Shown here: positions 6,998-59,127 of the stretch, piece after piece
Layout of the letters: each line of letters opens with the position of its first letter
Position numbering within the stretch: the stretch's first letter is position 1
Assembly: GCA_964583285.1 (NCBI GenBank)
Contig: CAZOVD010000002.1
Coordinates: forward strand, 2,940-66,939
DNA: 64,000 bases
Reading direction: 5' to 3'
DNA from: an uncultured archaeon
GTDB taxonomy: Archaea > Iainarchaeota > Iainarchaeia > Iainarchaeales > JAAZKV01
Translations under genes and position numbers: made by a program
Notes under the pieces: model-generated
Database searches by the model: none
What the model was told of the DNA's origin: nothing
Seen by the model: only the letters and a program-made list of their open reading frames with translations

Positions 6998-9148
6998 TTA
7001 ATCACTAGGATTAGTTACTAAATTTCCTGAAAATTCACTTGGTATTGTTCCAAGTTTTGAAGTTCCAAGTATTCCTCCTAAACTATTTCCAAGTAAAAAT
7101 GATGTTGTAACATCTTCCCCCCATTCTGCTACACCCCAAACACCTAATAAATCATTGCCCCAAATTCCTGCTCCACCTGCCCAATTATATGTATCCCATA
7201 ATCCAAATGCATCATTATCCCATATTAATTGATTCCCTGTAATACTTCTAGTTCTTATTACAAGTTGTGCACTCGGATTATCAATTAATTCTAAATCATC
7301 TAAAAATTCAATTGCTTCAATTAAAACATCTGATTGTCCTTTTTCTTTTTCTTCAAGAGCATTAATTCTTTCATATAAATTATTTAAGTAATCTTCAACT
7401 GTATTTGGCAATGCTGATAACTTAAGAGTAGTATTTAATTTTCCTCCAATTAAAATACTTTTAGTACTTGTAACAACAAAAGTTTGTGGCGTTGAATAAT
7501 ATTTATCATTTATATATTGTACTGTTTCACCTACATCTATTAACGGATTTATTTTTATCTTACTTGTCCCCACTGGAATAGGGTCTTTATATCTTGATAC
7601 AGTTTGTCTTGCTATTGTTAGAGCATCATCTTTACTAAAAATATATTCATTTTCTATTTTACTTTCTCTTAATCCATAATTACTAATACTTTCAGTATCT
7701 TTATATGTTGCAGTAATTGGAACAGAATATGTATAATTTACAACAATATTATTTGTTCCAACTCCTGGTACAGAACCAGATTCAAAAATAATTTGTCTAT
7801 TTTTTTGGTCTGTTTTATAATCAAATGTTGTTCCAGTCATTCCTGTTTGATAACCTAATTGCTCTGTTCCACCAACAGTTATATAAGTATCTACAGGTTC
7901 ATATGTAAGTGTAAAAGTATCTGTAGAACCATTACCACTAAATTTTTCTTCCCAAGTAAATAATTGCCTTGCTCCATATACTGTTACTTTATTAATAAGA
8001 TTTGTATCATCATCATAAAACTCATCTGATAAAATATTATTTCCTCTAGTTAAGGTTACTCCAGAACTAATTGTTCCTTGAATACCAAAATTTAAATCTT
8101 TATTGATATCAACATAAAAATCATAATCTACTGGTCTTGCATTTGCTATTTTTTTAATTGCTTCATGGCAACTGACATTTTTGAATTGTACTGTTGTATA
8201 ATTATTAGTAAATTCTACTTTATCTGTAGTAAATCCATCTGTTTCATCATTATGCGGGTTTATTCTCATTTCATCTAAATAAAAATAACCAGAATCAGTT
8301 GATGCAACATCTATTGATAATCTTACATAATCATTATTAAACAATGAAACAGTTCCAATATCTGTTTTATTTGCCATATCAAATATTAAATAATTCCAAC
8401 CATTTACTAAAGTTGCTTCATTAGACATTTCATAATAATTAGAATTATCTTGTCCAATTCTAAGAGTTAATCCACTAACATCTGATGCATCTTCAATATA
8501 AAAGTATATTTGAATTCTATCTGTAGGTTGTAATTGATAACCATTGGTATAAGTTTTTTCTATATATCCTATTCCAGTACTAGCTGTTATTACTTTTAAA
8601 CAAGCTGTTCCAAATCTAGCATATAAATGATTATTCGCATCTGTTCCAGTTTCAGAACTAATAGTTGTTAGTATACTACTATCAGAAGTCCACCCAGTTG
8701 TTGCATCAAAACTATCTATAATAGTTCCTTTTAAGATATATTTATTAATAATATCTCTAACAATTATACTAAATTCTTTATCATTATATACTTGTGCTCT
8801 AACAAGAACCTGATTTAGATAAGTTGTATAATCACCACCAGTTATAGATAATTCAAATGCTTTTCCAAGAGTTCTTTCAACTGTTTCAATATATCCACCA
8901 AATATTTTTGCATTATCAGAAGTTCTAAATGCTTTTAATTCATCACCAGAACTAACAGTATTATAAAGAGTATTTGTTGGGTCACTTATTAATAAATTAA
9001 ATTTACCAGATAATTTAGTAAGATTTCTTTCCCAATCAAATTGTTTTACTCTTGTTAATGTAGACCCATTAATAGTTAAATAATATCTAGTACTAGAAAG
9101 TTCCCCGTATGTTGAACTATCATATAAGTCTATATCATATCCTGGCAT
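6998..9148 (-). CDS. large distal tail / baseplate hub-like structural protein
   Basis: 716 aa, one of the largest ORFs in the distal-tail gene run that follows the tape measure. C-terminal Trp/Gly-rich repeats 'WGNDLLGVWGVAEWG'. Confidence 0.5.
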   Translation of the reverse strand: MPGYDIDLYDSSTYGELSSTRYYLTINGSTLTRVKQFDWERNLTKLSGKFNLLISDPTNTLYNTVSSGDELKAFRTSDNAKIFGGYIETVERTLGKAFELSITGGDYTTYLNQVLVRAQVYNDKEFSIIVRDIINKYILKGTIIDSFDATTGWTSDSSILTTISSETGTDANNHLYARFGTACLKVITASTGIGYIEKTYTNGYQLQPTDRIQIYFYIEDASDVSGLTLRIGQDNSNYYEMSNEATLVNGWNYLIFDMANKTDIGTVSLFNNDYVRLSIDVASTDSGYFYLDEMRINPHNDETDGFTTDKVEFTNNYTTVQFKNVSCHEAIKKIANARPVDYDFYVDINKDLNFGIQGTISSGVTLTRGNNILSDEFYDDDTNLINKVTVYGARQLFTWEEKFSGNGSTDTFTLTYEPVDTYITVGGTEQLGYQTGMTGTTFDYKTDQKNRQIIFESGSVPGVGTNNIVVNYTYSVPITATYKDTESISNYGLRESKIENEYIFSKDDALTIARQTVSRYKDPIPVGTSKIKINPLIDVGETVQYINDKYYSTPQTFVVTSTKSILIGGKLNTTLKLSALPNTVEDYLNNLYERINALEEKEKGQSDVLIEAIEFLDDLELIDNPSAQLVIRTRSITGNQLIWDNDAFGLWDTYNWAGGAGIWGNDLLGVWGVAEWGEDVTTSFLLGNSLGGILGTSKLGTIPSEFSGNLVTNPSD

Positions 9149-9161
9149 TTATTAATCACTT

Positions 9162-9437
9162 CTATTCTTCATCTATTGTATAATCATTGTCCTCGTATGC
9201 TTGCCATTTAGTATTAAATTCTTCTCTTTTTGCTTGTACTAAATCAGAAATCACACCTTCGTTAATTTCTCTTGCTGAATCCCTTGCTTTATAAAATTCA
9301 TTTTTTCTTTTTTGTTCTGCATTATCTTGTGCAAATTCTGCAATAGCTCCAAGTAAAGCACTTGCTTTTTCTTGTTCTCCTAATGCTAAATAAGCATCAC
9401 TTGTTATTAATTCTGTTATTTTATCTTCTAAACTCAT
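9162..9437 (-). CDS. hypothetical acidic protein in the tail module
   Basis: 91 aa, helical and acidic, co-oriented. Confidence 0.4.
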   Translation of the reverse strand: MSLEDKITELITSDAYLALGEQEKASALLGAIAEFAQDNAEQKRKNEFYKARDSAREINEGVISDLVQAKREEFNTKWQAYEDNDYTIDEE

Positions 9438-9448
9438 ATTAAATCACC

Positions 9449-10105
9449 TCACTCTATATAAGTTTTTTTATAAAGAGCTTTAATTTCATTATCTGATAAA
9501 ACTCTTTCAAATAACATAAAATTCTTTATATCTCCATTAAATTCATAATATGTTCCACCAGCAATGGTAGAGCCAAAAACATTATTTCCATTGCTTAAAG
9601 TCTGACTAGTATCAGCACCCTCGTCTTCTAAAATACCATTGACATAAAGTTTTTGATATGTTCCGGTATTCATACTTGCACAAACAAAATACCAATCAGT
9701 AATATTAAATGTTGTTGTTGCTGTCACCTTTGCTGTTCCACAACCTATACCAAATGTTAATTCATCTGTTGTTGCATCAAAATATAAATCAGTAGAACTT
9801 GGATTACAACCACTTAAAACTCCATTATGAAATAATCCTCTTTGTGTTCCACCAGCGACAGCGTCTCTTTTAATCCACATACAAATAGTATAACCAGTAG
9901 AAATACTTAATGCAGTTCCTAAACTAATATAGTCACTAGTTCCATTCTGACTAATAGCATAACTACCATCTTTAATTTTAATCCAACTACTAGAACCACT
10001 AGTATAAGTAGAACTACCACCTTGTCCATAATTATTTAGAGTAGTTCCTGTTCCTTCAGTCATAGGCAACCATATTTTTAAATTTGCATCATTAAACAAA
10101 GTCAT
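9449..10105 (-). CDS. LamG/concanavalin-like jelly-roll domain protein (receptor-binding candidate)
   Basis: Pattern 'WYFVCASMNTGTYQKLYVNGIL...FNGDIKNFMLFERVLSDNEIKALY' is typical of Laminin-G-like domains. Confidence 0.6.
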   Translation of the reverse strand: MTLFNDANLKIWLPMTEGTGTTLNNYGQGGSSTYTSGSSSWIKIKDGSYAISQNGTSDYISLGTALSISTGYTICMWIKRDAVAGGTQRGLFHNGVLSGCNPSSTDLYFDATTDELTFGIGCGTAKVTATTTFNITDWYFVCASMNTGTYQKLYVNGILEDEGADTSQTLSNGNNVFGSTIAGGTYYEFNGDIKNFMLFERVLSDNEIKALYKKTYIE

Positions 10106-11811
10106 TTTTTAACACCTCTAATAATTGGAGTTATGTTATTATTTTTAGTAAGATTATATAATTCAAGAACTTCGTCTGCTGAAAGAGCTGAATTTAAAAA
10201 TCCAACATCTGTAACTTGTCCATATAAATATTGCTCAGCAGCATTACTTGCTTTTCCTACAACAAAATTATTATTAGTTGTTGGAAAAGTTCCACTCCAA
10301 GCAGTTTGTGTTACATATTCTCCATCTAAATATAATTGTACATTTGAACCATCAAAAACACCAGTTAAAAAATACCATTGTCCCTTAGTAATGGTTCCGC
10401 TACTTACTTCATGGGTTGTACCTGAAGTATTTCCAACTCCAAATCTAAAAGTATTATTATCTGCAAACACTAATCTATATCTTATATCGGCCCAACTTGA
10501 ACTACTCCCTTTTCCACATATTTGAGCAGAATTTGATGCACTTGGATTAATGTTTACCCAACAAAATAAAGTTAAATTATTTCCACTTGGAACTAAGTTA
10601 GTAGTAGACCCCATATCAATATAATCTCCACTTCCATCAAAACTATAAGCACTATTTACTTGCCCTAAATGATTTATTATTAAAACAGCATTTGTAACAG
10701 TCCCATCATTACTTCCAATTAAATCTTTAGCATCATTTCTAAAATCATAATAAGAAATACAATCATCAAAAATAGAATATTTTTTTGGAACAAAATTTTC
10801 ATAAACAAAAACATGATATGTTATTTTGCTTGTTAGAATAATAAATCTGCCATCATCTGAAATTGCAGAAGTATCAACATCATTAACATTATCAGGTTCA
10901 AGAGTTATTACACGACTATTGCCTTTATATACAAATACTTCTGTTCCATCTCTGATAAGGAAATAAGGACTATAAAAACCATTATCTATATATATACCAC
11001 TTGTAGAAAAACCACTTTCAGAATATGTTTCAGTTCCGCTCATATCATATTTTTTTAAAACACCATCATCCCATACAATCACAAATTCATTATTAATAGT
11101 ATCTAATCCACAATCTAATGGATTTACTCCTACTCGGCTAATGCTGGCATCAACAGTATGTGTGGCAGTTTCATAAATACTAACTGTTCCTGAAGCAAAA
11201 TGAACTAATAAATAATCACCAGTATTATCATAAACAACATTGTCAGTATCTCCGCTTGCAAAAGTTGTCCTGCTCCAAGTAGAAGTATCATATTCATATA
11301 ATGTTTGTGTTCCGGTGTATGCATAAGCTGTTACTACTTTGCTTAAATCTTTTTTGTAAATAGTTCCTGTATTATAATCTGAAATATTTTGGTTAATTGT
11401 ACTTAAATTATCAATTTCATATCTTCTAAATTCTCTGAAAGTTCCAGTAACAATCACTTCTGTACTATCTGGTGTAAAATCCATAGCATAAGGCGCATTA
11501 CTTGAACCTAAATTAAGACTATCAGACAAAGACCATGTTGATGTATTGTATGAATAAATACCATATGGACCTCCTGACCATGGACCACTTTCATAAGTAA
11601 CTAGTCTAGAGCTATCCCAATTAAATCTATTTTTAGATACTGAAGCTGATGCATTTGTTAAAGTTGTTTGTAAATTTAAATCAGCCAAGTTAAAAATATA
11701 TACATTATCATCTTTAGAACCTACAGCACACCATTTATTATCGGGCGATATATTTGCTTGATTTGCTTCGTCTGTTAAATTGGTAAATGTTTTAACTAAT
11801 TTAAAGCTCAT
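10102..11811 (-). CDS. beta-propeller (WD40-like) plus C-terminal LamG-like domain tail protein
   Basis: N-terminal 'AVGSKDDNVYIFNL'-type blades. C-terminal 'WYFLTGVFDGSNVQLYLDGEYV...GQVTDVGFLNSALSADEVLELY'. ATG 11811 follows 'gtggtgggataaa'; the track start 11829 is upstream. Confidence 0.6.
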   Translation of the reverse strand: MSFKLVKTFTNLTDEANQANISPDNKWCAVGSKDDNVYIFNLADLNLQTTLTNASASVSKNRFNWDSSRLVTYESGPWSGGPYGIYSYNTSTWSLSDSLNLGSSNAPYAMDFTPDSTEVIVTGTFREFRRYEIDNLSTINQNISDYNTGTIYKKDLSKVVTAYAYTGTQTLYEYDTSTWSRTTFASGDTDNVVYDNTGDYLLVHFASGTVSIYETATHTVDASISRVGVNPLDCGLDTINNEFVIVWDDGVLKKYDMSGTETYSESGFSTSGIYIDNGFYSPYFLIRDGTEVFVYKGNSRVITLEPDNVNDVDTSAISDDGRFIILTSKITYHVFVYENFVPKKYSIFDDCISYYDFRNDAKDLIGSNDGTVTNAVLIINHLGQVNSAYSFDGSGDYIDMGSTTNLVPSGNNLTLFCWVNINPSASNSAQICGKGSSSSWADIRYRLVFADNNTFRFGVGNTSGTTHEVSSGTITKGQWYFLTGVFDGSNVQLYLDGEYVTQTAWSGTFPTTNNNFVVGKASNAAEQYLYGQVTDVGFLNSALSADEVLELYNLTKNNNITPIIRGVKK

Positions 11812-37736: not shown

Positions 37737-37758
37737 AAAAATATTTTTAAATATATTG
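37737..37758 (-). promoter_or_regulatory. early-type promoter motif
   Basis: The - strand reads CAATATATTTAAAAATATTTTT, about 42 nt upstream of ATG 37707. Confidence 0.55.
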
Positions 37759-44286: not shown

Positions 44287-44958
44287 ATGGAAAAACAAAA
44301 ATTAATACCTGTATCAAATGCGTTACACACCAAGTTAAAAGAATCAAAAGGTAAACTGACATTTGAAGAATACATACAAACAAATTTATCTCCAAAAAAG
44401 GTTCAATTATTTGAACAAATGTCAAAAAAATTCAATGAATTATTCTATTTATATGATATTGACAGAACAGATGATTTTGAACAAGATTATTTGGCTCTTT
44501 TAAAATGCTTAAAATTTAGCGACCAAAAACAAGTAAAAGTACAAACAATAAAACAAATTGAAAAAACCAAAAAAGAAGAACCTGAACCATTAGAAATAAA
44601 ATACTATTTAGAACTACCTGTCTCAAAACCAAAGTATCTGGCATGGCTTGAAACACTTACATTTGAAGAAATAAAGAAAACATTGACATTGCCTCCGGCC
44701 TCAGAAGTTCCAGATGCAAAAGACTTAAGAATAATAAATGATGAAGAAAACATTATTGCACGCGACAAATATATTCTGGATTGGCCGAGTGAGGATAAAA
44801 TATTATTATTAAATATTTATAATAAAATAAATGATGCAGCAGAAGATTCTTTGCATTTAGTTAAAACAACTAATGAAGAAAAAGAACTGTTACTAAAATT
44901 ACCAAGTGAATGTTTAACATTTAAACTAGATTATTGGAAAGATATTAACAAAAAATAA
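44287..44958 (+). CDS. hypothetical protein, first gene of the rightward block (leaderless candidate)
   Basis: 223 aa with no SD upstream ('cctataataaaattaatATG'). Confidence 0.55.
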   Translation: MEKQKLIPVSNALHTKLKESKGKLTFEEYIQTNLSPKKVQLFEQMSKKFNELFYLYDIDRTDDFEQDYLALLKCLKFSDQKQVKVQTIKQIEKTKKEEPEPLEIKYYLELPVSKPKYLAWLETLTFEEIKKTLTLPPASEVPDAKDLRIINDEENIIARDKYILDWPSEDKILLLNIYNKINDAAEDSLHLVKTTNEEKELLLKLPSECLTFKLDYWKDINKK

Positions 44959-50747: not shown

Positions 50748-51238
50748 ATCTTTTTCAAGTAATTAGTCATATTTATACAGATAAAAATACTTTATGGATT
50801 GATTCTATAGAGGAAGATGAATTTGCACAATTACACCCTTTTATTATTACAAAATTTTTATCAATGAATAAATCATTATCTAATATAATAAAAATTTTAG
50901 ATAAATATTCATTTATTTTAGAACCAAAAAAATTTTTATTTGTAGCTTGGGCTGTTGTCCCTAAACAACCAACAGCACCATTTGTTAAATATATAAAGAA
51001 AGAAGAAGAAGTTCAAGAACTAGCATTCTTATATGAAAAAATAAAACATAATACAAAAGTGTATGGTAATGATTTTAAAACAATAAAAAAATATTTAGAC
51101 AAAGATATACAATCTGATATGAAAAAATATTTTATAAGGTTTGCTATTGATAAAAAATACTGGAAAAAATACGGATTAGAATATCCTAAATTTGAAAAAA
51201 AAGAAGAAAAACCGGTTGGTTTGGATGCGTGGTTTTAA
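50744..51238 (+). CDS. hypothetical protein (clamp-loader accessory candidate) ending in a PIP-like peptide
   Basis: 164 aa, ATGA-coupled to the RFC-like gene. C-terminus 'PVGLDAWF*'. Confidence 0.35.
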   Translation: MNLFQVISHIYTDKNTLWIDSIEEDEFAQLHPFIITKFLSMNKSLSNIIKILDKYSFILEPKKFLFVAWAVVPKQPTAPFVKYIKKEEEVQELAFLYEKIKHNTKVYGNDFKTIKKYLDKDIQSDMKKYFIRFAIDKKYWKKYGLEYPKFEKKEEKPVGLDAWF

Positions 51239-51369
51239 TGCAAGAATTATGTAAAAGATGTAATAGAAAATTAACAAGCGAGGAGAGTAGAATTAGAGGA
51301 TATGGCCCAAGTTGTTGGAAAAAAATTAAAAAAGAAGAACAACCAAACCTTGAAAAGTGGCTGGATTAA
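51238..51369 (+). CDS. zinc-ribbon mini-protein (43 aa) ending in a canonical PIP box
   Basis: MQELCKRCNRKLTSEESRIRGYGPSCWKK...EEQPNLEKWLD* (QxxLxxWL). TAATG junction. Below the track threshold. Confidence 0.5.
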   Translation: MQELCKRCNRKLTSEESRIRGYGPSCWKKIKKEEQPNLEKWLD

Positions 51370-51390
51370 CATTATATTTAAAAAGGTTTT
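51370..51390 (+). promoter_or_regulatory. early-type promoter motif in front of the deazaguanine operon
   Basis: CATTATATTTAAAAAGGTTTT, with the box 39 nt upstream of ATG 51424 (SD 'aaaggagtgattat'). Confidence 0.6.
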
Positions 51391-51423
51391 GTTAAAATAA
51401 TATATTATGAAAGGAGTGATTAT

Positions 51424-51870
51424 ATGAAAAAATTTTCAGTTACAAAACATATAAGATTTGATTATGGACATAGAGTACCATTTCATAAATCTAAATGCTA
51501 CAATACACACGGTCACAATGGAGAAGTTCATGCTACAATTGAAGGACCATTAGTAGATATTAATAACGATAATGATTTTGGTATGGTAATGGATTTTAGT
51601 AAAATAAAAGAATTACTAATGAAAGTGAGTCATGATAGATTTGACCACAAATTTTTACTTTGGAAAGATGACCCATTATATTTACAATATAAAGATTTAC
51701 CAGGTATGGTTACTGTTGATTTTGTTCCAACAGCAGAAAATTTAGCTAAACATATTTACGAAGAATTACAAAAAGAACTAGATAATATTAATTTTAAAGG
51801 AAAAGTAACTAATGTTAGGTTTTTTGAAACACCAACAAGTTATGCTGATTATAGTGGAGATGATGAATAA
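51424..51870 (+). CDS. queD: 6-carboxy-5,6,7,8-tetrahydropterin synthase (QueD, PTPS family)
   Basis: 'FDYGHRVPFHKSKCYNTHGHNGEV' carries the His/Cys zinc and catalytic pattern of PTPS/QueD; 148 aa. Confidence 0.85.
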   Translation: MKKFSVTKHIRFDYGHRVPFHKSKCYNTHGHNGEVHATIEGPLVDINNDNDFGMVMDFSKIKELLMKVSHDRFDHKFLLWKDDPLYLQYKDLPGMVTVDFVPTAENLAKHIYEELQKELDNINFKGKVTNVRFFETPTSYADYSGDDE

Positions 51871-52628
51871 TGCCAATAACTTTAATTGATTCATTTCCTA
51901 AAGAAAAAAGAGAAGCAAGAAAAGATGGTTCTGCTATTTTACATATAGCAGAAAATTTTATGGATACTATTCAAGGTGAAAATATGGTTGGTGTTCCTAG
52001 TACTTTTTTAAGATTGCAAGGTTGTACTCTTAATTGTGTCTGGTGTGATACTGCTGAAGTATGGAGACAAGGAAACCCATATTCTGTAGATGAAATACTT
52101 GATATATGGGACCAAACTGGTTTACTTTTTAAATTTGAAGAAGGCCAACATTTAATTTTAACAGGTGGAAGTCCATTAAAGCAACAAGATGCTTTAATTG
52201 AATTAATTACTAAAGTAAAAGAAATTAGTCCAAAAACAATTGTTGAAATAGAAAATGAATGCGTATTAATGCCAAAACAAGAAATGATTGATTTAGTAGA
52301 TATTTGGAATAATAGTCCAAAATTAAAAAATAGTGGCATGAATGAATTAGTTAGATATAAACCTGAAGTATTAACAAAAGTTTCTGGTTTAGAAAATAGT
52401 TATTTTAAATTTGTAATAACTTCAGAAGAAGATTGGCAAGAAATTAAAAATGATTTTTTAGACCCTGGTTGTATTAAAAAAGAACAAATAGTATTAATGC
52501 CAGAAGGACAAACAAGAGAAGAATTACAAAAACATTATGATATTGCGGTAAACATTGCTGTAAGAGAAAATGTAAGATTTACAGATAGATTGCATGTAAC
52601 AATTTGGAATAAGAAGACGGGCGTATAA
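51870..52628 (+). CDS. queE: 7-carboxy-7-deazaguanine synthase (QueE, radical SAM)
   Basis: 'FLRLQGCTLNCVWCDT' (CxxxCxxC) and 'LTGGSPL'. TAATG junction with queD. Confidence 0.85.
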   Translation: MPITLIDSFPKEKREARKDGSAILHIAENFMDTIQGENMVGVPSTFLRLQGCTLNCVWCDTAEVWRQGNPYSVDEILDIWDQTGLLFKFEEGQHLILTGGSPLKQQDALIELITKVKEISPKTIVEIENECVLMPKQEMIDLVDIWNNSPKLKNSGMNELVRYKPEVLTKVSGLENSYFKFVITSEEDWQEIKNDFLDPGCIKKEQIVLMPEGQTREELQKHYDIAVNIAVRENVRFTDRLHVTIWNKKTGV

Positions 52629-52630
52629 TT

Positions 52631-53044
52631 ATGGTAAAAAAAGTATATGTTAGTTATGAAGACGTAAAATCAGCAATAGAATTATTATGGGAATTATATA
52701 ATTCTGAAGCAGAAGTTGAACAAATGAAATATGTTTATGGTGTTCCAAGAGGTGGAATTATTCCAGCAATAATGTTTTCAAATATATCTGGTTTAAAATA
52801 TATTGATATATTAGATAAAAAAATTCATACACCACAAAATACTATTGTTATTGATGATATAGTTGATAGTGGCAAAACAAGAAAAAAATATATTGATTAT
52901 TTTTTTTCAGCAATTATTGATAAAATAGAAGCTCAAGATTATAAAGGTAAATGGATTGAATTTTTTTGGGAAAAAACAGAAGCAGATGATAAAGATTTAG
53001 TATTAAGAATAGCACAAAGATTAGGAGTTGATATAAAATGCTAG
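52631..53044 (+). CDS. type I purine phosphoribosyltransferase, XGPRT-like
   Basis: 'YGVPRGGIIPAIMF' and the PRPP loop 'IVIDDIVDSGKT'. Colinear with E. coli Gpt blocks ('AVSRGGLVPGALL', 'FIVIDDLVDTGGT', 'WIEQPWD' versus 'WIEFFWE'). Confidence 0.7.
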   Translation: MVKKVYVSYEDVKSAIELLWELYNSEAEVEQMKYVYGVPRGGIIPAIMFSNISGLKYIDILDKKIHTPQNTIVIDDIVDSGKTRKKYIDYFFSAIIDKIEAQDYKGKWIEFFWEKTEADDKDLVLRIAQRLGVDIKC

Positions 53045-53706
53045 ATAAAAGTAAAACTAATCCAGAACTTGGAAAAAAAGTAAATGATTATTTAAAAGAA
53101 AAAGGAGTTCATACGCCAACAGAAATGCATAATAATATGGACAATAAAGAAAAGAAAGAGTATATTGAATCATTATATAATAATATAATGGAAGCTCTTA
53201 ATCAAGATTTAAATGATGATAGTTTAAAAGATACTCCTAGAAGAGTTGCTAAAATGTATGTTGATGAATTATTTTGGGGTATGGATTCAAATAATTTTCC
53301 TAAATGTACAGCAGTTGAAAATAAAATGAAATATGATGAAATGGTTGTTGAAAAAAATATTAAAGTAGCTTCAGTATGTGAGCATCATATACAACCTATT
53401 TGGGGTAAATGCCATATAGCATATATACCAGATAAAAAAGTAATTGGTTTAAGTAAAATGAATAGAATAGTAGAATATTTTTGTAGAAGACCACAAATAC
53501 AAGAGCGTTTAACAGAACAAATTTATTATGCATTATCTTATATTTTAGAAACACCAAATGTAGCAGTAGTAATTGATGCTGAACATTTTTGTGTAAAACT
53601 AAGAGGAGTAGAAGATATTAATTCTAGTACTGTAACAAGTAAACTTGGAAAAAAATTTATTGAAGAACCAGAATTAAGAGCTGAATTTATGGGGTTGATA
53701 AAATGA
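53038..53706 (+). CDS. folE: GTP cyclohydrolase I (FolE type 1)
   Basis: 'TPRRVAKMY', 'SVCEHHIQPIWGKCHIAYIP' and 'RPQIQERLT'. Confidence 0.9.
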   Translation: MLDKSKTNPELGKKVNDYLKEKGVHTPTEMHNNMDNKEKKEYIESLYNNIMEALNQDLNDDSLKDTPRRVAKMYVDELFWGMDSNNFPKCTAVENKMKYDEMVVEKNIKVASVCEHHIQPIWGKCHIAYIPDKKVIGLSKMNRIVEYFCRRPQIQERLTEQIYYALSYILETPNVAVVIDAEHFCVKLRGVEDINSSTVTSKLGKKFIEEPELRAEFMGLIK

Positions 53707-54476
53707 GTGAAAAAGCTGTAATAATATTGTCTGGAGGAATGGATTCTGTAGTGTTACTACATTATCTAATAAAAAAATTAAATAAAAAAGTGCATGCCTT
53801 AAGTTTTGATTATGGACAAAAACATAATATTGAACTTGAAATGGCTAAAAAAAATATTGAGGAATTGAAAGAAAATATTGTTGATTGGAAAATTCTTGAT
53901 ATTACATTTATGAAAGAATTATTAAAAGGAAGCAATGCCTTAACAGATGATAATATTGAAGTTCCAACTCTTGAAGAAGTAATTGGAGAGCCACAACCTA
54001 TTACATATGTTCCAATGAGAAATTTAATGTTTTTAACTCTTGCATCAGCTTATGCTGAAGCTGTTGGAGCATCTGATGTGTATTATGGAGCACAAAAACA
54101 TGATGAATATTCAGGTTATTGGGATACTACTTCAATGTTTAGAGATAAATTAAATGATGTTTTAACACTTGATAGAAAAAATACTATTAAGATTAAAGCA
54201 CCATTTGTTAACTTGCATAAATCAGAAGAAGTTATTCTTGGTAATGATTTAGGAGTTGATTTTTCTAAAACATGGACTTCATATAAGGTAATTGATATAG
54301 AAAATTTAATTGCTGATATTGATAATCCCACAAGTAGGGATAGAATTAAAGCGTTTGCAGAAGCAGGTATTCCTGACCCACAAAAATATAATAAAGAAAT
54401 TAATTGGGAAGAATTATTTGAAAAATATAAAAAAGATTTTACAGTTGAAGAAGTATCTAAAAAATTGGTGTTATAG
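53703..54476 (+). CDS. queC: QueC-like PP-loop ATPase lacking the four zinc-ligand cysteines
   Basis: 'AVIILSGGMDSVV' and 'YVPMRNLMFL' are QueC-like. Where B. subtilis QueC has 'LTCYNG...GCGECPACHLR', this protein has 'TWTSYKV...IDNPTSRDRIK'. Confidence 0.7.
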   Translation: MSEKAVIILSGGMDSVVLLHYLIKKLNKKVHALSFDYGQKHNIELEMAKKNIEELKENIVDWKILDITFMKELLKGSNALTDDNIEVPTLEEVIGEPQPITYVPMRNLMFLTLASAYAEAVGASDVYYGAQKHDEYSGYWDTTSMFRDKLNDVLTLDRKNTIKIKAPFVNLHKSEEVILGNDLGVDFSKTWTSYKVIDIENLIADIDNPTSRDRIKAFAEAGIPDPQKYNKEINWEELFEKYKKDFTVEEVSKKLVL

Positions 54477-55055
54477 ATGTGTGGTATTGTTGGTTGGAAA
54501 GAATGGAATTCAAGTATTAAAAATTTACAATATTTAAACAGCAAACGCGGTGGATATTCTACAGGTGTATTTAATTTTGAAAATAATTATTCGTTTTCAA
54601 ATGAAGGAACATTTTTTCCAACTGATACAAATAATTCTATTGTTCAATACCGTGCTCCAACTGCAGGTATTAATAATTTTATAAAACAAGAAAATTATCC
54701 ATTGAAATATAAAAATTGGAATTTATTTGGAAATGGTGTAATTAATGCTGATTTTTTTAAGCAAATTAAAGATGAAGATAACAATAATGATTTATACTAT
54801 ATATTAAAAGGAATTGTGAATAATGGTTTTAAATGGCTTGAAAAAGTTGAAGGAACATTTGCATTGGTTATTATTGATGACAATCATAATATTTATCTAA
54901 TACGAAAAGATTTTCCATTATTTTTTAATAAAAATCAATTTAGTAGTATTCAATTTGATAATAGTGAAAAACTTAAAAGTGGAATTTTATATGATTGGAC
55001 GTATAATAAACATGTTAAAGAATTAAATTTTAAAGAAGAATATTTACATTTATAG
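54477..55055 (+). CDS. stand-alone class II (Ntn) glutamine amidotransferase domain
   Basis: N-terminal 'MCGIVG' (Cys2 nucleophile). AsnB-like blocks 'KRGGYSTGV', 'GNGVINA' and 'VEGTFALVIIDDNHNIYLIRKDFPLFF'. Confidence 0.7.
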   Translation: MCGIVGWKEWNSSIKNLQYLNSKRGGYSTGVFNFENNYSFSNEGTFFPTDTNNSIVQYRAPTAGINNFIKQENYPLKYKNWNLFGNGVINADFFKQIKDEDNNNDLYYILKGIVNNGFKWLEKVEGTFALVIIDDNHNIYLIRKDFPLFFNKNQFSSIQFDNSEKLKSGILYDWTYNKHVKELNFKEEYLHL

Positions 55056-55067
55056 GAGTGATTTAAA

Positions 55068-55547
55068 ATGAGTAGAAATGATGAAGAATTAAAAGATGTT
55101 ACCTTATTAGGTAATCAAAATACAAAATATGAAATGGATGAGGTTAAACCAGAATTACTTGAAACGTTTGATAATAAACACCCAGAAAATGATTATCTTG
55201 TTTCTTGGAAGTGCCCAGAATTTACAAGTACTTGCCCAAAAACAGGACAGCCAGATTTTGCAACAATAATAATTCAATATGTTCCAAGAATTAAAATGGT
55301 TGAATCAAAATCATTAAAACTATATTTATTTAGTTTTAGAAATCATGGAGATTTTCATGAAGATTGCGTAAATATTATTATGAAGGATTTAATTAAATTA
55401 ATGGACCCTAAATGGATTAGAGTAATAGGAGATTTTACACCAAGAGGTGGAATAAGTATAAATCCAATTGCAGAATATACAGCAAAAGATTATACACCAC
55501 CGGCACATTATCTAGCATTACCACAAATACATCAAAGACATCTATAG
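55068..55547 (+). CDS. queF: NADPH-dependent preQ0 reductase (QueF, unimodular type)
   Basis: Catalytic '[13 protein letters not shown]' and the QueF motif '[21 protein letters not shown]'; 159 aa. Confidence 0.85.
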
Positions 55548-55556
55548 AGTGATATT

Positions 55557-56021
55557 ATGAATCAGTTACTAATAGATGTTGATGTAGATTTATTACAAGT
55601 TAGGGGACCAGTTGAAGATGATATTCGTCAATGTCAAAAATTACTTGAACAATGCAGTACATTTGTTTATGCTACAACTTTGAAGGAAATGATAAAAAAA
55701 CATAGAGTATTTATTCTTGGTGAAATTGGATGCCCTATTGGAATAATTGTATTTAATGCATCATTTAATACAATATCATATTTAGCAGTTCATACGCAAT
55801 TCAGACAAAAAGGTATTGCTCAAAAGTTATTTAATTATGGTATAGATTATCATAATATAAATAGTTTAATAATAAAAGCAATGATTGATGAACCAAGTTC
55901 TGAACCATTTTGGTCTAAACTTGGTTTCATTTCTACTCAAAAAATCTATACCACTAAACGAAAAAAGTTACTTGAAATGATTTGGTATAGAAAAAAATCA
56001 TGTGAGGTTAGTTTAATATGA
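55557..56021 (+). CDS. GNAT-family N-acetyltransferase
   Basis: Acetyl-CoA motif A 'LAVHTQFRQKGIAQKLF' and C-terminal 'FWSKLGF'; 154 aa. Confidence 0.65.
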   Translation: MNQLLIDVDVDLLQVRGPVEDDIRQCQKLLEQCSTFVYATTLKEMIKKHRVFILGEIGCPIGIIVFNASFNTISYLAVHTQFRQKGIAQKLFNYGIDYHNINSLIIKAMIDEPSSEPFWSKLGFISTQKIYTTKRKKLLEMIWYRKKSCEVSLI

Positions 56022-57202
56022 ATAGAAATTTTTTTGAAGCAAATAAATTAGTATATTTACCTGCAATTTTGCCAGCAAAAGGTCTTTATTGTAATAATCA
56101 TGGGTTGGATTTTGAACCTCAATTTTGGAACAATAAAGGTATATGGCAATATGATAATTTACTAGTATCAACATATCATGCAAAAGAAATAAAAAATTTT
56201 AGAGAAGAACTTGAAATAGATAATAAAGTAAAAATACTTGGCGATAGCGGAGGTTTTCAAGCTGTAACACTTGGCGGTGATTTAAACGCTAAAGAAGTAA
56301 TTAAATGGCAATTAAGTAATTGCGATGCAGGATTAATTCTTGATAGACCGCCATATGAATTTAATAATACTGCTCAATTTAGTGGAACTCCAACTGAAGA
56401 ATTTTTTAATAAATGCTTACAAATAACATATGATAATGCAAAAATTGCTTTATTATATAATAATGAATCATATGAAAATCACTCTGATAAACCTATAAGA
56501 TTATATGGAGTTATTCAAGGTGAAACTTGGCAACAGATGATTAATTGGTATAAAAGAATGCATGAATTAGAAATTGAAACAAAATATGAATTTAATGCTT
56601 GGGCTATGTCTCCAAAACCATCTTATGACCCAATTAAAATTGCTATGTTTGGAATTATTGCTCTTGAATATAAATTAAATAAACCAATTCATATTTTACA
56701 AGTTAGTGGAAAAGGTGGTATCTTTATTGGAGCATTAATTAGAAAATTGACAGGCCAACCTGTAACAATTGATTCATCTACTTGGGGTGTTTCAGCAAGA
56801 TATGGAACAGCAATTGACCCATTAAATATTCCAGATTTAACGCCTGTTGGGCAAAAACTTAATACAGATAATATGTCTGGATGGTTTTGTGATTGTCCAA
56901 TATGTTCTAAATTAAAAATAAATGTAGAAAAAATTGGAGAAAAATATACTCATTATTTAAATGTTCATAATTTATATCAACTTGCTAAAATTACAAAATA
57001 TTTTGATTTTATGATTCAAAATAAAAACGAAGATATTATTTTAATTGCAAGAAGAATTTCTAAAGATTGCGAAACTGCAGCGCAAATGCTATTAGATTAT
57101 AAACAATTTGGATTTAAATATACTGCAAATAAATATAGAGAGGTTTTTAATGATGAAAATAAAATAAATTTAAAAAATCAAACAAATATATTTAATTTTT
57201 AA
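56018..57202 (+). CDS. dpdA: DpdA-type DNA-guanine transglycosylase (TGT superfamily)
   Basis: 'KILGDSGGFQ' and the zinc motif 'FCDCPICSKL...YLNVHNLY'; 394 aa, ATGA-coupled. C-terminus 'QTNIFNF*'. Confidence 0.8.
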   Translation: MNRNFFEANKLVYLPAILPAKGLYCNNHGLDFEPQFWNNKGIWQYDNLLVSTYHAKEIKNFREELEIDNKVKILGDSGGFQAVTLGGDLNAKEVIKWQLSNCDAGLILDRPPYEFNNTAQFSGTPTEEFFNKCLQITYDNAKIALLYNNESYENHSDKPIRLYGVIQGETWQQMINWYKRMHELEIETKYEFNAWAMSPKPSYDPIKIAMFGIIALEYKLNKPIHILQVSGKGGIFIGALIRKLTGQPVTIDSSTWGVSARYGTAIDPLNIPDLTPVGQKLNTDNMSGWFCDCPICSKLKINVEKIGEKYTHYLNVHNLYQLAKITKYFDFMIQNKNEDIILIARRISKDCETAAQMLLDYKQFGFKYTANKYREVFNDENKINLKNQTNIFNF

Positions 57203-57216
57203 GGAGGGGATTTGAG

Positions 57217-59127
57217 ATAGAAAAAATTTTAATATATGATTTAGAGACAAAAACTCCAGAAAAAGCACCTAATCCTGAACTTGATGAAGTCAGAGTTATT
57301 GGTTTTTGGTCTAGTATTACTAATGAATATCATATTGAATTTTATGATAATTATAAAACAAAACAAGACTTTCTGAATAAAATTAAAAATATTTTTGCTG
57401 TTCATGATTTTTTAGTTGGTTTTAATAATTTACAATACGATAATTCAGTTTTATATCATAATAAATTACATGGCATAAATACTAATAAATGGGGTGATTA
57501 TACAATTATTGGCAAAGTGAATATTGATTTAATGCAAATATTTAAAATGCGCGCTGGTGCAATGAAAATAGATAAAGGGATGCTTGGAGATTTATTAATG
57601 AGTTATAGTCTTGATTTTATTTCTCAAACAATTGGTATTGTTAAAAATAATGGAAAAATTAAAGATTTTGATTATATGTTATTAAATAAAGATTCTTGGA
57701 GTAAAGAAGAAAAAGAAAACATAAAAGAATATACATTAAAAGATATTGAAGTAACTAAAAAAATGTATGATTGGCTTGAAAATTATTTTGAAGGATTTAA
57801 GCCTTTTTTAAAAGAAGAAGATAATAAAAAGAAAGATTATTTAACAATACCAATAAGTGTTTTTGCTTATAAATCAATATGTAAAGCAATGAATTGGCAA
57901 GAAGAATATGCAAAGAAAAATCATCATACAAGTTATGGTGGAGGATATGTTGCTTATCCTGCTGGAGAACATTTTTCAGGAAATATTTATTGTCTTGATT
58001 TTAATTCTTTATATCCTTCTATAATGCATCAATGTAATATTTATTCACCTGTAGCTTATAGTAATGATGGTGATGAAGCAATTAAAACTTGTTGGACAGG
58101 AAATAATAAGTTTAAGGTAGAAGGATGTTATGATACTAGACAACAAGGCAAAGTAGAAAAATTATTAAAAGAATGGTATGAACAAAGATTAATTTGGAAA
58201 AAACAAAGAGACCCAAGAGAATATTCTATTAAAATAATTATTAATACAATTTATGGATTATTAGGAAATGAAGCGTTTAAACATATTGCTAATCCTATTT
58301 CTGCCGGTGATGTAACTAGAATTGGACGTCAATGGGTAAAACTCTCAAGAACAAGATTTAAAGAAGCTGGATATGAAGTAATTTATACTGATACTGATTC
58401 TGTATATATTATTGATAAAGTTAATGATAAAGAAAAAATGTTAAAAGTAAAAGATAAAATAATACAAGAAATAAAAGAAAATATTCCATTCCCATATGAA
58501 AATTTTGATATGGGAGTTGATGATGAAATATCTGATATGTGGTTCTTTAAAGGTGGAATAAAAGATAAAGATACTGATGATGAAATGGACGAAATGGATT
58601 TTGAAAATAAATCAAAAGGTTTTATGAAAAAAAATTATATCTATAGAACAATAGATGGTAAAGTAAAAGTTAAAAACCTTGGTGTTAGAAAAAAATCTAC
58701 TAGTGCTTTAACAAGAAAAATATTTTGGGATTATTTAATACCAAAAATCAGTCAAGAACGAAAAGTTAAATTTCCAAAAGAATATTTTGTTGAAGTAATA
58801 GATGAAATATTAAAAAAAGATATCAAAACTGCAGCAAAAAGATTTCAGGTTGCACCATTAGAAACTTATAAATTAGATGGACAATTACAAGCACAAATAG
58901 CCAAAGAATATGGCCCAGGAATACATTTTTTAATTAGAAATAAAAGAATAGGAATAGGAAAAGGTGTAAAATATTGTACTATAGATGAATTTATTTCTAG
59001 TAAATTAACAACAAAAGATTTAGTTCTTACAGGTATTTGGAAAGAATTAGCTTATTTTATTGATGGAGATATAGAATTAGAATCTGAAAAATATTCCCAA
59101 AGTACTGCATTAACGGAGTGGTTTTAA
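57217..59127 (+). CDS. polB: family B DNA polymerase with 3'-5' exonuclease; apparent non-ATG (ATA) start
   Basis: ExoI 'ILIYDLET', ExoII 'GFNNLQYDNSVL' and ExoIII 'YTLKDIEV'. Pol motifs A 'DFNSLYPSIM', B 'KIIINTIYGLLG' and C 'YTDTDS'. The track ORF (57517) omits ExoI and ExoII. Confidence 0.85.
   Translation: MEKILIYDLETKTPEKAPNPELDEVRVIGFWSSITNEYHIEFYDNYKTKQDFLNKIKNIFAVHDFLVGFNNLQYDNSVLYHNKLHGINTNKWGDYTIIGKVNIDLMQIFKMRAGAMKIDKGMLGDLLMSYSLDFISQTIGIVKNNGKIKDFDYMLLNKDSWSKEEKENIKEYTLKDIEVTKKMYDWLENYFEGFKPFLKEEDNKKKDYLTIPISVFAYKSICKAMNWQEEYAKKNHHTSYGGGYVAYPAGEHFSGNIYCLDFNSLYPSIMHQCNIYSPVAYSNDGDEAIKTCWTGNNKFKVEGCYDTRQQGKVEKLLKEWYEQRLIWKKQRDPREYSIKIIINTIYGLLGNEAFKHIANPISAGDVTRIGRQWVKLSRTRFKEAGYEVIYTDTDSVYIIDKVNDKEKMLKVKDKIIQEIKENIPFPYENFDMGVDDEISDMWFFKGGIKDKDTDDEMDEMDFENKSKGFMKKNYIYRTIDGKVKVKNLGVRKKSTSALTRKIFWDYLIPKISQERKVKFPKEYFVEVIDEILKKDIKTAAKRFQVAPLETYKLDGQLQAQIAKEYGPGIHFLIRNKRIGIGKGVKYCTIDEFISSKLTTKDLVLTGIWKELAYFIDGDIELESEKYSQSTALTEWF

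Follow-up and report, generated by a model that had tools for sequence, protein, structure and literature searches.

Which modified base does a viral 7-deazaguanine operon make, when a gene for a GNAT acyltransferase stands between its QueF reductase gene and the gene of its DNA transglycosylase, DpdA? The question arises at positions 51424-57202 of the 64,000-nucleotide (nt) stretch of DNA analyzed here (hereafter, the window), where nine genes encode QueD, QueE, a phosphoribosyltransferase (PRTase), FolE, QueC, a glutamine amidotransferase (Gat), QueF, the GNAT and DpdA (Table 1). Among the main means by which phages keep guanine out of reach of restriction enzymes and of other defences that target nucleic acids are 7-deazaguanine bases, of which eight derivatives are known; with each new side chain, the range of defences evaded becomes a different one. 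In the known pathway, FolE, QueD and QueE convert GTP to 7-carboxy-7-deazaguanine, QueC turns this compound into preQ0, QueF reduces preQ0 to preQ1, and DpdA swaps guanine in DNA for the 7-deazaguanine base. An earlier note on this DNA held that the gene set corresponds to no described end product, which is borne out for the set taken as a whole, and predicted from it a new derivative or a new precursor routing. The comparative data given below strengthen the prediction of a derivative through the linkage of the GNAT to QueF and DpdA, while the part of the reasoning that leaned on Gat and the PRTase fails, as both are ordinary accessories of such clusters. We therefore read the locus as a preQ1-type DNA-modification operon with Gat and the PRTase as accessories, in which the GNAT would N-acylate preQ1, and we give this reading as a whole a probability of about 0.55. 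The GNAT is the novel element of the operon.

The GNAT protein scored above the cut-offs of Acetyltransf_10 (38.6 against 23.6), Acetyltransf_7 (30.2 against 27) and Acetyltransf_1 (26.4 against 20.7), and carries motif A (R/Q-x-x-G-x-G/A) as RQKGIA at residues 82-87. The overall GC content of its gene and that of third codon positions (GC3) are equal to those of the neighbouring genes. No GNAT homologues were found in phages by tblastn, and a word-indexed protein search returned only the GNAT itself; the idea that it is an orphan was, however, overturned by an exhaustive HMMER search, which gave 21 representatives of the family in 1.84 billion proteins. Gene context could be read for three members among the comparison contigs and loci (numbered within L002-L114), and in all three the GNAT, at 37-43% identity, was located in a deazaguanine cluster beside QueF/DpdA. 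The gene order is FolE-GNAT-QueF-DpdA in L111/L112, YhhQ-GNAT-DpdA with a stop/start overlap in L113, and PRTase-FolE-QueC-..-GNAT-QueF-DpdA1-ParB in L114, a 64-kb phage contig. Since it is seen in these contexts, the linkage survives changes of gene order and of DpdA subfamily, holding across three gene orders, de novo and salvage supply, and two DpdA subfamilies.

An independent survey of 80 viral loci with a unimodular QueF revealed a second GNAT group, and a scan with this group gave the order ParB-DpdA-QueF-GNAT-QueC in 10 of 10 loci; sister contigs without the second-group GNAT were also found. In addition, L037 has a further GNAT directly upstream of DpdA. Such a neighbourhood survey had been proposed in the earlier note, and its outcome is that the linkage of GNAT to QueF/DpdA is recurrent. 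All of the cluster-embedded GNATs are basic, with isoelectric points of 9.0-9.9 (9.0 for that of the window), whereas the biosynthetic enzymes are acidic, and the basic character of the putative tailoring enzymes fits nucleic-acid binding. Taken together, these results make it highly probable that the GNAT is functionally tied to the deazaguanine pathway.

The slot occupied by the GNAT is one in which tailoring genes are found in known phages. Cellulophaga phage phiSM, a characterized mdPreQ1 phage whose dPreQ1/mdPreQ1 cluster encodes FolE, QueD, QueE, QueC, QueF, DpdM and DpdA1 (PMC10516641), shares the core and the unimodular QueF with the window, and has the tailoring gene DpdM (CEPG_00054) between QueF (CEPG_00055) and DpdA (CEPG_00053). 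Unlike in the window, the phiSM slot holds a YkgJ-type methyltransferase and not a GNAT, the DpdA is of a different subfamily, and neither Gat nor a PRTase is present within the region from FolE to QueE. L021, a relative of the window virus, has a DpdM-like CxxCxxCC protein between QueF and DpdA, and L010 has a DpdN-like formyltransferase after QueF. In Flavobacterium phage immuto_2-6A, an N-acyl-type tailoring enzyme, DpdN, is likewise encoded near DpdA, one short ORF (open reading frame) away, and the chemistry predicted for the window would be the next homologue of its formylation; this phage differs in the folate-dependent formyltransferase fold of DpdN, in its DpdA3 and in its family A polymerase, and no Gat was seen there. 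When the DpdM proteins of phiSM and L021 and the DpdN proteins of immuto_2-6A and L010 were used as tblastn queries, no significant homologue was detected in the window, and the GNAT is thus a non-homologous occupant of the slot used by DpdM and DpdN.

We suggest that the GNAT uses an acyl-CoA, most simply acetyl-CoA, and that it would N-acylate preQ1 at its 7-aminomethyl group, acting on the free base or on the base already inserted into DNA. With acetyl-CoA, this would give 2'-deoxy-7-(acetylamino)methyl-7-deazaguanosine (N-acetyl-dPreQ1, C14H19N5O5; calculated [M+H]+ 338.146), an acetyl counterpart to the derivatives with a methyl (DpdM) or formyl (DpdN) group that are already known. If this is true, acetylated dPreQ1 extends the methyl and formyl series and neutralizes the positive charge of the aminomethyl group, and the GNAT is added to the few enzymes for which decoration of DNA bases is known. 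Mom of phage Mu, a GNAT-fold enzyme that acylates adenine in DNA, is an anti-restriction precedent for base decoration by a GNAT; its target base and chemistry differ from those proposed here, and no sequence relationship was detected, no test aimed at one having been made. For jumbo phages, too, there are Iyer-type predictions of GNATs that modify DNA (cited in PMC7824862). There is no mention of an acetyltransferase in Hutinet 2019 (PMC6884629) or Cui 2023 (PMC10516641), and a literature search for an acetyltransferase paired with dPreQ1 found nothing, in agreement with the claim that the GNAT falls outside every published route.

Several points weigh against this reading. What the GNAT acylates, and from which donor, is deduced from gene context only, and the stage at which it would act is likewise a proposal. 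Genes for GNATs are frequent passengers in phages. L003, L016 and L020, which are the closest relatives of the window virus by genome, have no GNAT at the window position, and the core pathway can therefore do without it. The window GNAT and the second GNAT group share only fold-level similarity (hhalign probability 89.5%, BLASTP 0.002), and the 10 second-group loci may represent one phage lineage with inherited synteny. As to the other genes, QueC has lost the zinc site that is regarded as its hallmark, and its activity is assumed from the downstream QueF and from conservation in L010; the Gat-like protein of Vibrio phages VH7D and phi-ST2, to which we compare Gat below, is only weakly homologous to it (E 7e-5; hhalign probability 87%); and the substrate of the PRTase could be a 7-deazaguanine base instead of guanine.

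One possible explanation for this pattern is that the DNA carries plain dPreQ1 and that the GNAT acts elsewhere, for example on a protein of the host or the phage, a polyamine or an antibiotic-like molecule, its linkage to the cluster being a matter of synteny. GNATs are indeed widespread in phage genomes, the nearest relatives (L003, L016, L020 and L022) have QueF followed directly by DpdA, and the PDB sequence matches of the window GNAT, none of them significant (0.02-0.05), are protein N-terminal acetyltransferases. However, we consider this explanation less likely, as the family is very small and its members with context (four of four) all have QueF/DpdA as neighbours, across three gene orders and two subfamilies of DpdA, which is hard to square with inherited synteny alone, the second GNAT group is linked likewise in every locus of its scan, and the slot is that of DpdM and DpdN. 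We prefer the hypothesis that the GNAT is an N-acyltransferase of preQ1. A wider form of this hypothesis is that small, basic GNATs make up a dedicated and so far unrecognized family of tailoring enzymes for viral 7-deazaguanine DNA modification, present beside QueF/DpdA in five or more viral lineages and with two or more subfamilies of DpdA, that they make a ninth natural derivative, N-acetyl-dPreQ1 or another N-acyl form, and that they are accompanied by a glutamine-dependent, zinc-independent preQ0 synthase of two subunits (QueC + Gat) and a FolE-coupled, guanine-recycling PRTase; we place the chance that all of these parts hold together at about even.

The core of the operon conforms to expectation. 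The ORF listing gave nine tightly packed, co-directional frames on the plus strand, with coordinates that match those of the earlier note exactly; their junctions range from a 7-nt overlap up to a 12-nt gap, and GGAG/GAGTGA ribosome-binding sites are located upstream of most of the genes. The nine-gene set and all nine family assignments of the earlier note were confirmed by profile, motif and structure-model evidence, and the motifs that it quoted were all found in the translations, CxCxxC..H in the form CDCPIC..H. The profile-HMM (hidden Markov model) check that it had proposed supported QueD, QueE, FolE, QueC, QueF and the GNAT directly, whereas the PRTase, Gat and DpdA were weak in single-sequence searches and draw their support from a family profile (PRTase) or an AlphaFold model (Gat and DpdA). 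For QueE, the four best NCBIfam matches were all QueE models (3e-20 to 2e-13). QueF scored 175.9 on TIGR03139, as compared with a cut-off of 86.9, and has the features of a unimodular reductase, with the catalytic Cys lying within CPKTGQPDF and with ESKSLKLY as the NADPH motif; the motif E(S/L)K(S/A)hK(l/Y)(Y/F/W) separates true QueF reductases from QueF-L (Cui 2023, PMC10516641). FolE, QueD and QueE would accordingly supply 7-carboxy-7-deazaguanine from GTP, QueC would turn it into preQ0, QueF would reduce preQ0 to preQ1, and DpdA would exchange guanine in the viral DNA for a preQ1-type 7-deazaguanine post-replicatively. We have little doubt that the operon core is a dPreQ1-type pathway, and this core route is the viral dPreQ1 route already known. 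Among the comparison loci, mobile insertions were observed in two of these genes: QueE of L015 (441-2213) contains a Hint/intein domain, and FolE of L114 (5530-6576) contains an HNH domain. In L003, a ferredoxin-reductase-like protein (518-1183; NAD_binding_1, 4.4e-6) is encoded between QueC and QueF and is a possible source of reducing equivalents for QueF or QueE.

Table 1. Features of the deazaguanine operon and its flanks, with positions in the window.
Feature	Position	Strand	Evidence
Promoter-like 20-nt motif CATTATATTTAAAAAGGTTT	51370..51389	+	upstream of QueD; 7 copies with <=3 mismatches in the window, 0.17 expected
QueD, 6-carboxytetrahydropterin synthase	51424..51870	+	PF01242 6.9e-31; TIGR03367 2.5e-23
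QueE, radical-SAM 7-carboxy-7-deazaguanine synthase	51870..52628	+	Fer4_12 and Radical_SAM domains; CTLNCVWC (CxxxCxxC)
XGPRT-type 6-oxopurine PRTase	52631..53044	+	phosphoribosyl pyrophosphate (PRPP) loop VIDDIVDSGKT; family profile A10
FolE, GTP cyclohydrolase I	53038..53706	+	NF006824 2.3e-88, above cut-off
QueC variant without cysteines; putative preQ0 synthase	53703..54476	+	PF06508 6.8e-51; TIGR00364
Stand-alone class-II (N-terminal nucleophile, Ntn) Gat; putative QueC ammonia donor	54477..55055	+	starts MCGIVG
Unimodular QueF, NADPH-dependent preQ0 to preQ1 reductase	55068..55547	+	TIGR03139 2e-52
GNAT acyltransferase; predicted preQ1/dPreQ1 N-acetyltransferase	55557..56021	+	three Pfam GNAT models
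Divergent DpdA, predicted DNA guanine transglycosylase, 394 amino acids (aa)	56018..57202	+	AlphaFold model and conserved residues
Family B DNA polymerase (PolB)	57217..59127	+	PF00136 3.9e-21; immediately downstream of DpdA

The DpdA of the window is divergent. Its AlphaFold model (predicted local distance difference test score, pLDDT, 85; predicted template modelling score, pTM, 0.88) gave as its best two Foldseek matches in the PDB the bacterial DNA preQ0 insertase DpdA (7ui4, 3.7e-10) and a tRNA-guanine transglycosylase (TGT; 7a0b, 8.3e-10), the matches after these two being generic barrels. In an alignment of 21 homologues, D109, D252 and H317 are invariant, and D76-S-G-G and C291/C293/C296 are present in at least 90%; we take the conserved Asp residues to be the equivalents of TGT Asp102/156/280. 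BLASTP comparison with known subfamilies gave 1e-3 for NP1 DpdA1, 2.5e-4 for VH7D DpdA2 and 0.16 for immuto_2-6A DpdA3, and PF20314/DUF6610 (DpdA4) did not match the window DpdA at E <= 0.01. The protein and about 20 relatives form a group of their own, and by these comparisons it lies outside the named subfamilies DpdA1-DpdA4.

Two observations were made on relatives of this DpdA. L002 carries, at 8172-11146, a YhhQ/Vut_1 transporter gene and after it a tandem pair of DpdA paralogues, which share 44% and 48% identity with the window DpdA, and no biosynthetic genes are present within 10 kb. A conserved basic protein of 155-157 aa is encoded directly after DpdA in L002 (11156-11629), L005 (1013-1486) and L015 (5393-5860), and may be another DpdA-associated factor. 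It was tested as a candidate for the same GNAT; it is only weakly GNAT-like (Acetyltransf_10 2e-4; PDB 3d8p 0.039), and comparison with the GNAT of the window revealed no relation between the two (hhalign probability 1.4%; 30% with the second GNAT group).

QueC is unusual among the core enzymes. It scored 157.2 on TIGR00364 (cut-off, 150.3), shows weak Asn_synthase similarity, and keeps SGGMDS, YGQKHNIE and VPMRN. The motifs of QueC are SGGxDS, YxQxHxxE and VPxRN, together with the C(x)8CxxCxxC zinc motif that is regarded as its hallmark (PMC13082051). The window protein contains no cysteine at all, and its zinc cluster is replaced by ENLIADIDNPTS, with TSYKVIDIENLIADIDNPTS in place of the motif. 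The YPDC motif reads YWDT, in which the essential aromatic Tyr is kept; the corresponding sequences are YWDT in Vibrio phage 2.275.O and YWDC in VH7D. The same cysteine-free variant was found in L010 (9182-9997), an unrelated 133-kb phage contig, whereas 11 other viral QueCs keep the zinc motif, and in both zinc-less cases a stand-alone Gat follows and QueF is present. Because the variant recurs in L010, again with Gat after it and with QueF, the zinc-less protein is probably a conserved and active form that works like QueC. Its assignment to a non-QueC paralogue of the QatC/Cap9/LarE type was rejected, since SGGxDS, YxQxHxxE and VPxRN are present, QueF follows, and the same variant occurs in the QueF-plus-formyltransferase cluster of L010. 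A natural QueC without the hallmark zinc site bears on the mechanism of QueC.

Gat was weak by sequence (0.0046), and its AlphaFold model (pLDDT 91) matched the glutaminase domains of GlmS (1xff, 1.7e-8), AsnB (1ct9) and PurF (1ecb). Residues C2, R24, G25, N86, G87 and D105 are invariant in 15 homologues, and homologues at 42-51% identity exist. Gat adjoins QueC in L010, along with a bimodular QueF and the DpdN-like formyltransferase, and in L020, the relative of the window virus that has QueF; in L012 it lies two genes downstream of QueC, with no QueF in view. In this QueF-less cluster, a DUF6884 protein (9360-9788; 7.4e-20) is encoded between QueC and Gat. Weaker homologues starting with MCG follow QueC in 2.275.O (1e-11) and in VH7D and phi-ST2 (7e-5). 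The latter two are Vibrio Schizotequatroviruses with DpdA2, QueF and DpdM, whose QueC is 38% identical to that of the window and is directly followed by an unannotated protein of about 200 aa related to Gat; unlike in the window, their QueC keeps the four zinc cysteines, and no GNAT or PRTase is present in the cluster.

Asparagine synthetase B is built in this way, as a PP-loop amide synthetase paired with a class-II Gat, and we therefore infer that QueC and Gat may form a split, asparagine-synthetase-like, glutamine-dependent preQ0 synthase, in which Gat would hydrolyse glutamine and pass the ammonia to QueC. The earlier note had instead counted Gat and QueF as the enzymes of two branches. 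In that case QueC + Gat would make archaeosine (dG+), as the Gat-QueC of Enterobacteria phage 9g does, in parallel with QueF-made preQ1, leading to a mixture or a hybrid product. The catalytic set of the window Gat is intact, and a class-II Gat combined with a QueC PP-loop is shared with the Gat-QueC proteins of 9g and Pseudomonas phage NP1, that of 9g yielding dG+ together with DpdA (Hutinet 2019, PMC6884629). However, the phage proteins are fusions with an N-terminal Gat, in phages that have no QueF and whose product is dG+, whereas the window has two ORFs in the opposite order, QueC and then Gat, along with QueF. The similarity of the window Gat to the Gat domain of NP1 Gat-QueC is not significant (E 0.16). 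In addition, Gat homologues co-occur with QueF, following QueC, in L010, L020, 2.275.O, VH7D and phi-ST2, and the measured DNA of phi-ST2 contains dPreQ1 and mdPreQ1, with dG+ = 0 (Cui 2023 Table 1, PMC10516641). Gat-QueC and QueF are combined in none of the phages in the portion of the supplementary table of Hutinet 2019 (PMC6884629) that was consulted. We thus find a dG+ branch improbable, and Gat is best read as a putative ammonia donor for QueC, since its homologues follow QueC in QueF phages and phi-ST2 DNA is without dG+. The known systems nearest to the window are phiSM in slot and chemistry, immuto_2-6A in its PRTase-FolE pair and its N-acylation, and VH7D and phi-ST2 in a QueC with a Gat-like protein after it. 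By these comparisons, the window differs from the known systems in having a GNAT without homology to DpdM or DpdN, in a zinc-less QueC, and in a DpdA outside the four named viral subfamilies.

The PRTase, which was weak in a single-sequence search (1.6e-7), was examined with profile A10, built from the window protein and six phage homologues. The profile matched 1vdm (2.5e-18), 5xtk (3.9e-16) and Escherichia coli XGPRT (1a95, 5.7e-14), including the C-terminal WIxFxWE motif. By tblastn, PRTase homologues were detected in 47 phage records. In immuto_2-6A, a PRTase 33% identical to that of the window stands just before FolE, in the same sub-order QueD..QueE..PRTase-FolE, and homologues are also present in Cellulophaga phage phiST and Vibrio phage 1.117.O; the DNA of immuto_2-6A is fully fdPreQ1, and the base of phiST is dDG (Cui 2023, PMC10516641). 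In the Pseudomonas NP1/JG012/PaMx25 group, which encodes Gat-QueC, the PRTase is fused N-terminally to FolE, and the NP1 gene annotated as "GTP cyclohydrolase" (L009 5926-6819) begins with a PRTase domain, about 115 aa long, and continues as FolE. The PRTase is found in L015, L097, L098, L108, L110 and L114 as well, adjoining FolE in L015 and L114. The main papers on viral 7-deazaguanine DNA modification mention neither a phosphoribosyltransferase nor the PRTase-FolE fusion of NP1-like Queuovirinae. The PRTase had been taken in the earlier note as a sign of a new product, which does not agree with its presence in clusters with known bases (fdPreQ1 and dDG) and its fusion to FolE in Gat-QueC phages.

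As the PRTase travels with different end products while being tied or fused to FolE, the simplest reading is one of salvage, in which guanine set free by DpdA would be turned by the PRTase into GMP again and would thereby replenish the GTP that FolE uses as its substrate. Working roles can thus be proposed for two accessories, the PRTase and Gat, that are unmentioned in the main papers although they occur in clusters characterized there. In a different role, like that proposed for ToyH in toyocamycin biosynthesis, the PRTase would ribosylate preQ0, preQ1 or acetyl-preQ1 with PRPP and PolB would incorporate the nucleotide during replication, so that modification is partly pre-replicative. Such a route would suit the 7-deazaguanines as 6-oxopurine analogues, the run of the operon into the polymerase gene, and the complete G replacement in the PRTase phages immuto_2-6A and phiST (Cui 2023, PMC10516641), but it is the most improbable of the explanations weighed here, as the PRTase always adjoins or fuses to FolE, the first guanine-nucleotide-consuming step, and not the late enzymes, all such phages encode DpdA and modify their DNA post-replicatively according to the same study, and no kinase or reductase for an analogue nucleotide was found in the operon.

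With regard to expression, the earlier note had claimed a single early-type promoter at 51370-51390. A recurrent promoter-like motif of 20 nt is indeed present there, while a generic sigma-70 consensus scan gave 102 hits against 91 +/- 9 in shuffled controls, which is not above chance. The motif has the form (C/A)A(T/A)TATATTTAAAAAGGTTT, and its copies lie at 37739, 40127, 41616 and 42118 on the minus strand and at 44957, 49071 and 51370 on the plus strand, every copy being co-oriented with the downstream genes; no second copy is present inside 51424-57202. Given this number of copies over expectation, each pointing to downstream genes, the motif is a credible promoter-like element and not a chance AT-rich string, and it is likely a viral promoter. 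Its TATA-box-like core would fit an archaeal host or an AT-rich bacterial host. A DUF6011 ORF of 46 aa (51229-51369; Pfam 1.3e-12) ends exactly at the start of the motif, and in the relatives L015, L016 and L020 the DUF6011 ORF is instead located directly after PolB. Within the QueE coding region, a perfect 9-bp inverted repeat, TTCTGCTAT...ATAGCAGAA, with a T-rich tail (51929-51953) has a terminator-like score on both strands.

At the other end, the PolB frame starts about 15 nt past the DpdA stop and is open from 57196, and AGGAGG is found at 57203-57208; the operon therefore does run straight into the polymerase gene, as had been claimed, and PolB is probably co-transcribed with the nine genes. 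No ATG, GTG or TTG occurs in this frame for about 320 nt (57196-57517), the first being a GTG at 57517, and the ExoI region (ILIYDLET) is encoded there, which can be aligned to the L003 homologue at its N-terminus. Since AGGAGG sits at 57203-57208, the translation start of PolB is probably a non-canonical ATA (57217) or ATT (57226).

The window is a part of a 69-kb contig of a tailed virus, with portal and tail-related proteins on the minus strand and a replication module on the plus strand, which comprises a helicase, an AAA_24 ATPase, an RFC (replication factor C)-like clamp loader, PolB, a Cas4-like nuclease and an ERCC4 nuclease. Of the archaeal-type replisome that the earlier note had proposed, the RFC-like clamp loader, PolB and ERCC4 are thus present, though T4-like phages have parts analogous to these. 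A 235-aa ORF of the window sits where the relative L016 has a weakly PCNA-like protein, and no tRNA genes were found in the window. Megablast of the operon against GenBank phages gave just a 219-nt match in QueF, which indicates that there is no close cultured relative. Look-ups by exact sequence with the DpdA and the GNAT of the window retrieved no source contigs. The related contigs L003, L015, L016 and L020-L022, with DpdA 35-52% identical to that of the window, have the core QueD/E-FolE-QueF-DpdA-QueC beside the polymerase gene, in a shared frame of clamp/RFC/164-aa protein, deazaguanine cluster and polymerase, and among them the PRTase, Gat and the GNAT are variable extras. Scans of metagenomes and of genomes with the DpdA alignment yielded two loci each. 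The related contigs L018 and L019 are binned into a "Bacilli bacterium" metagenome-assembled genome (MAG) and a "Candidatus Woesearchaeota archaeon" MAG.

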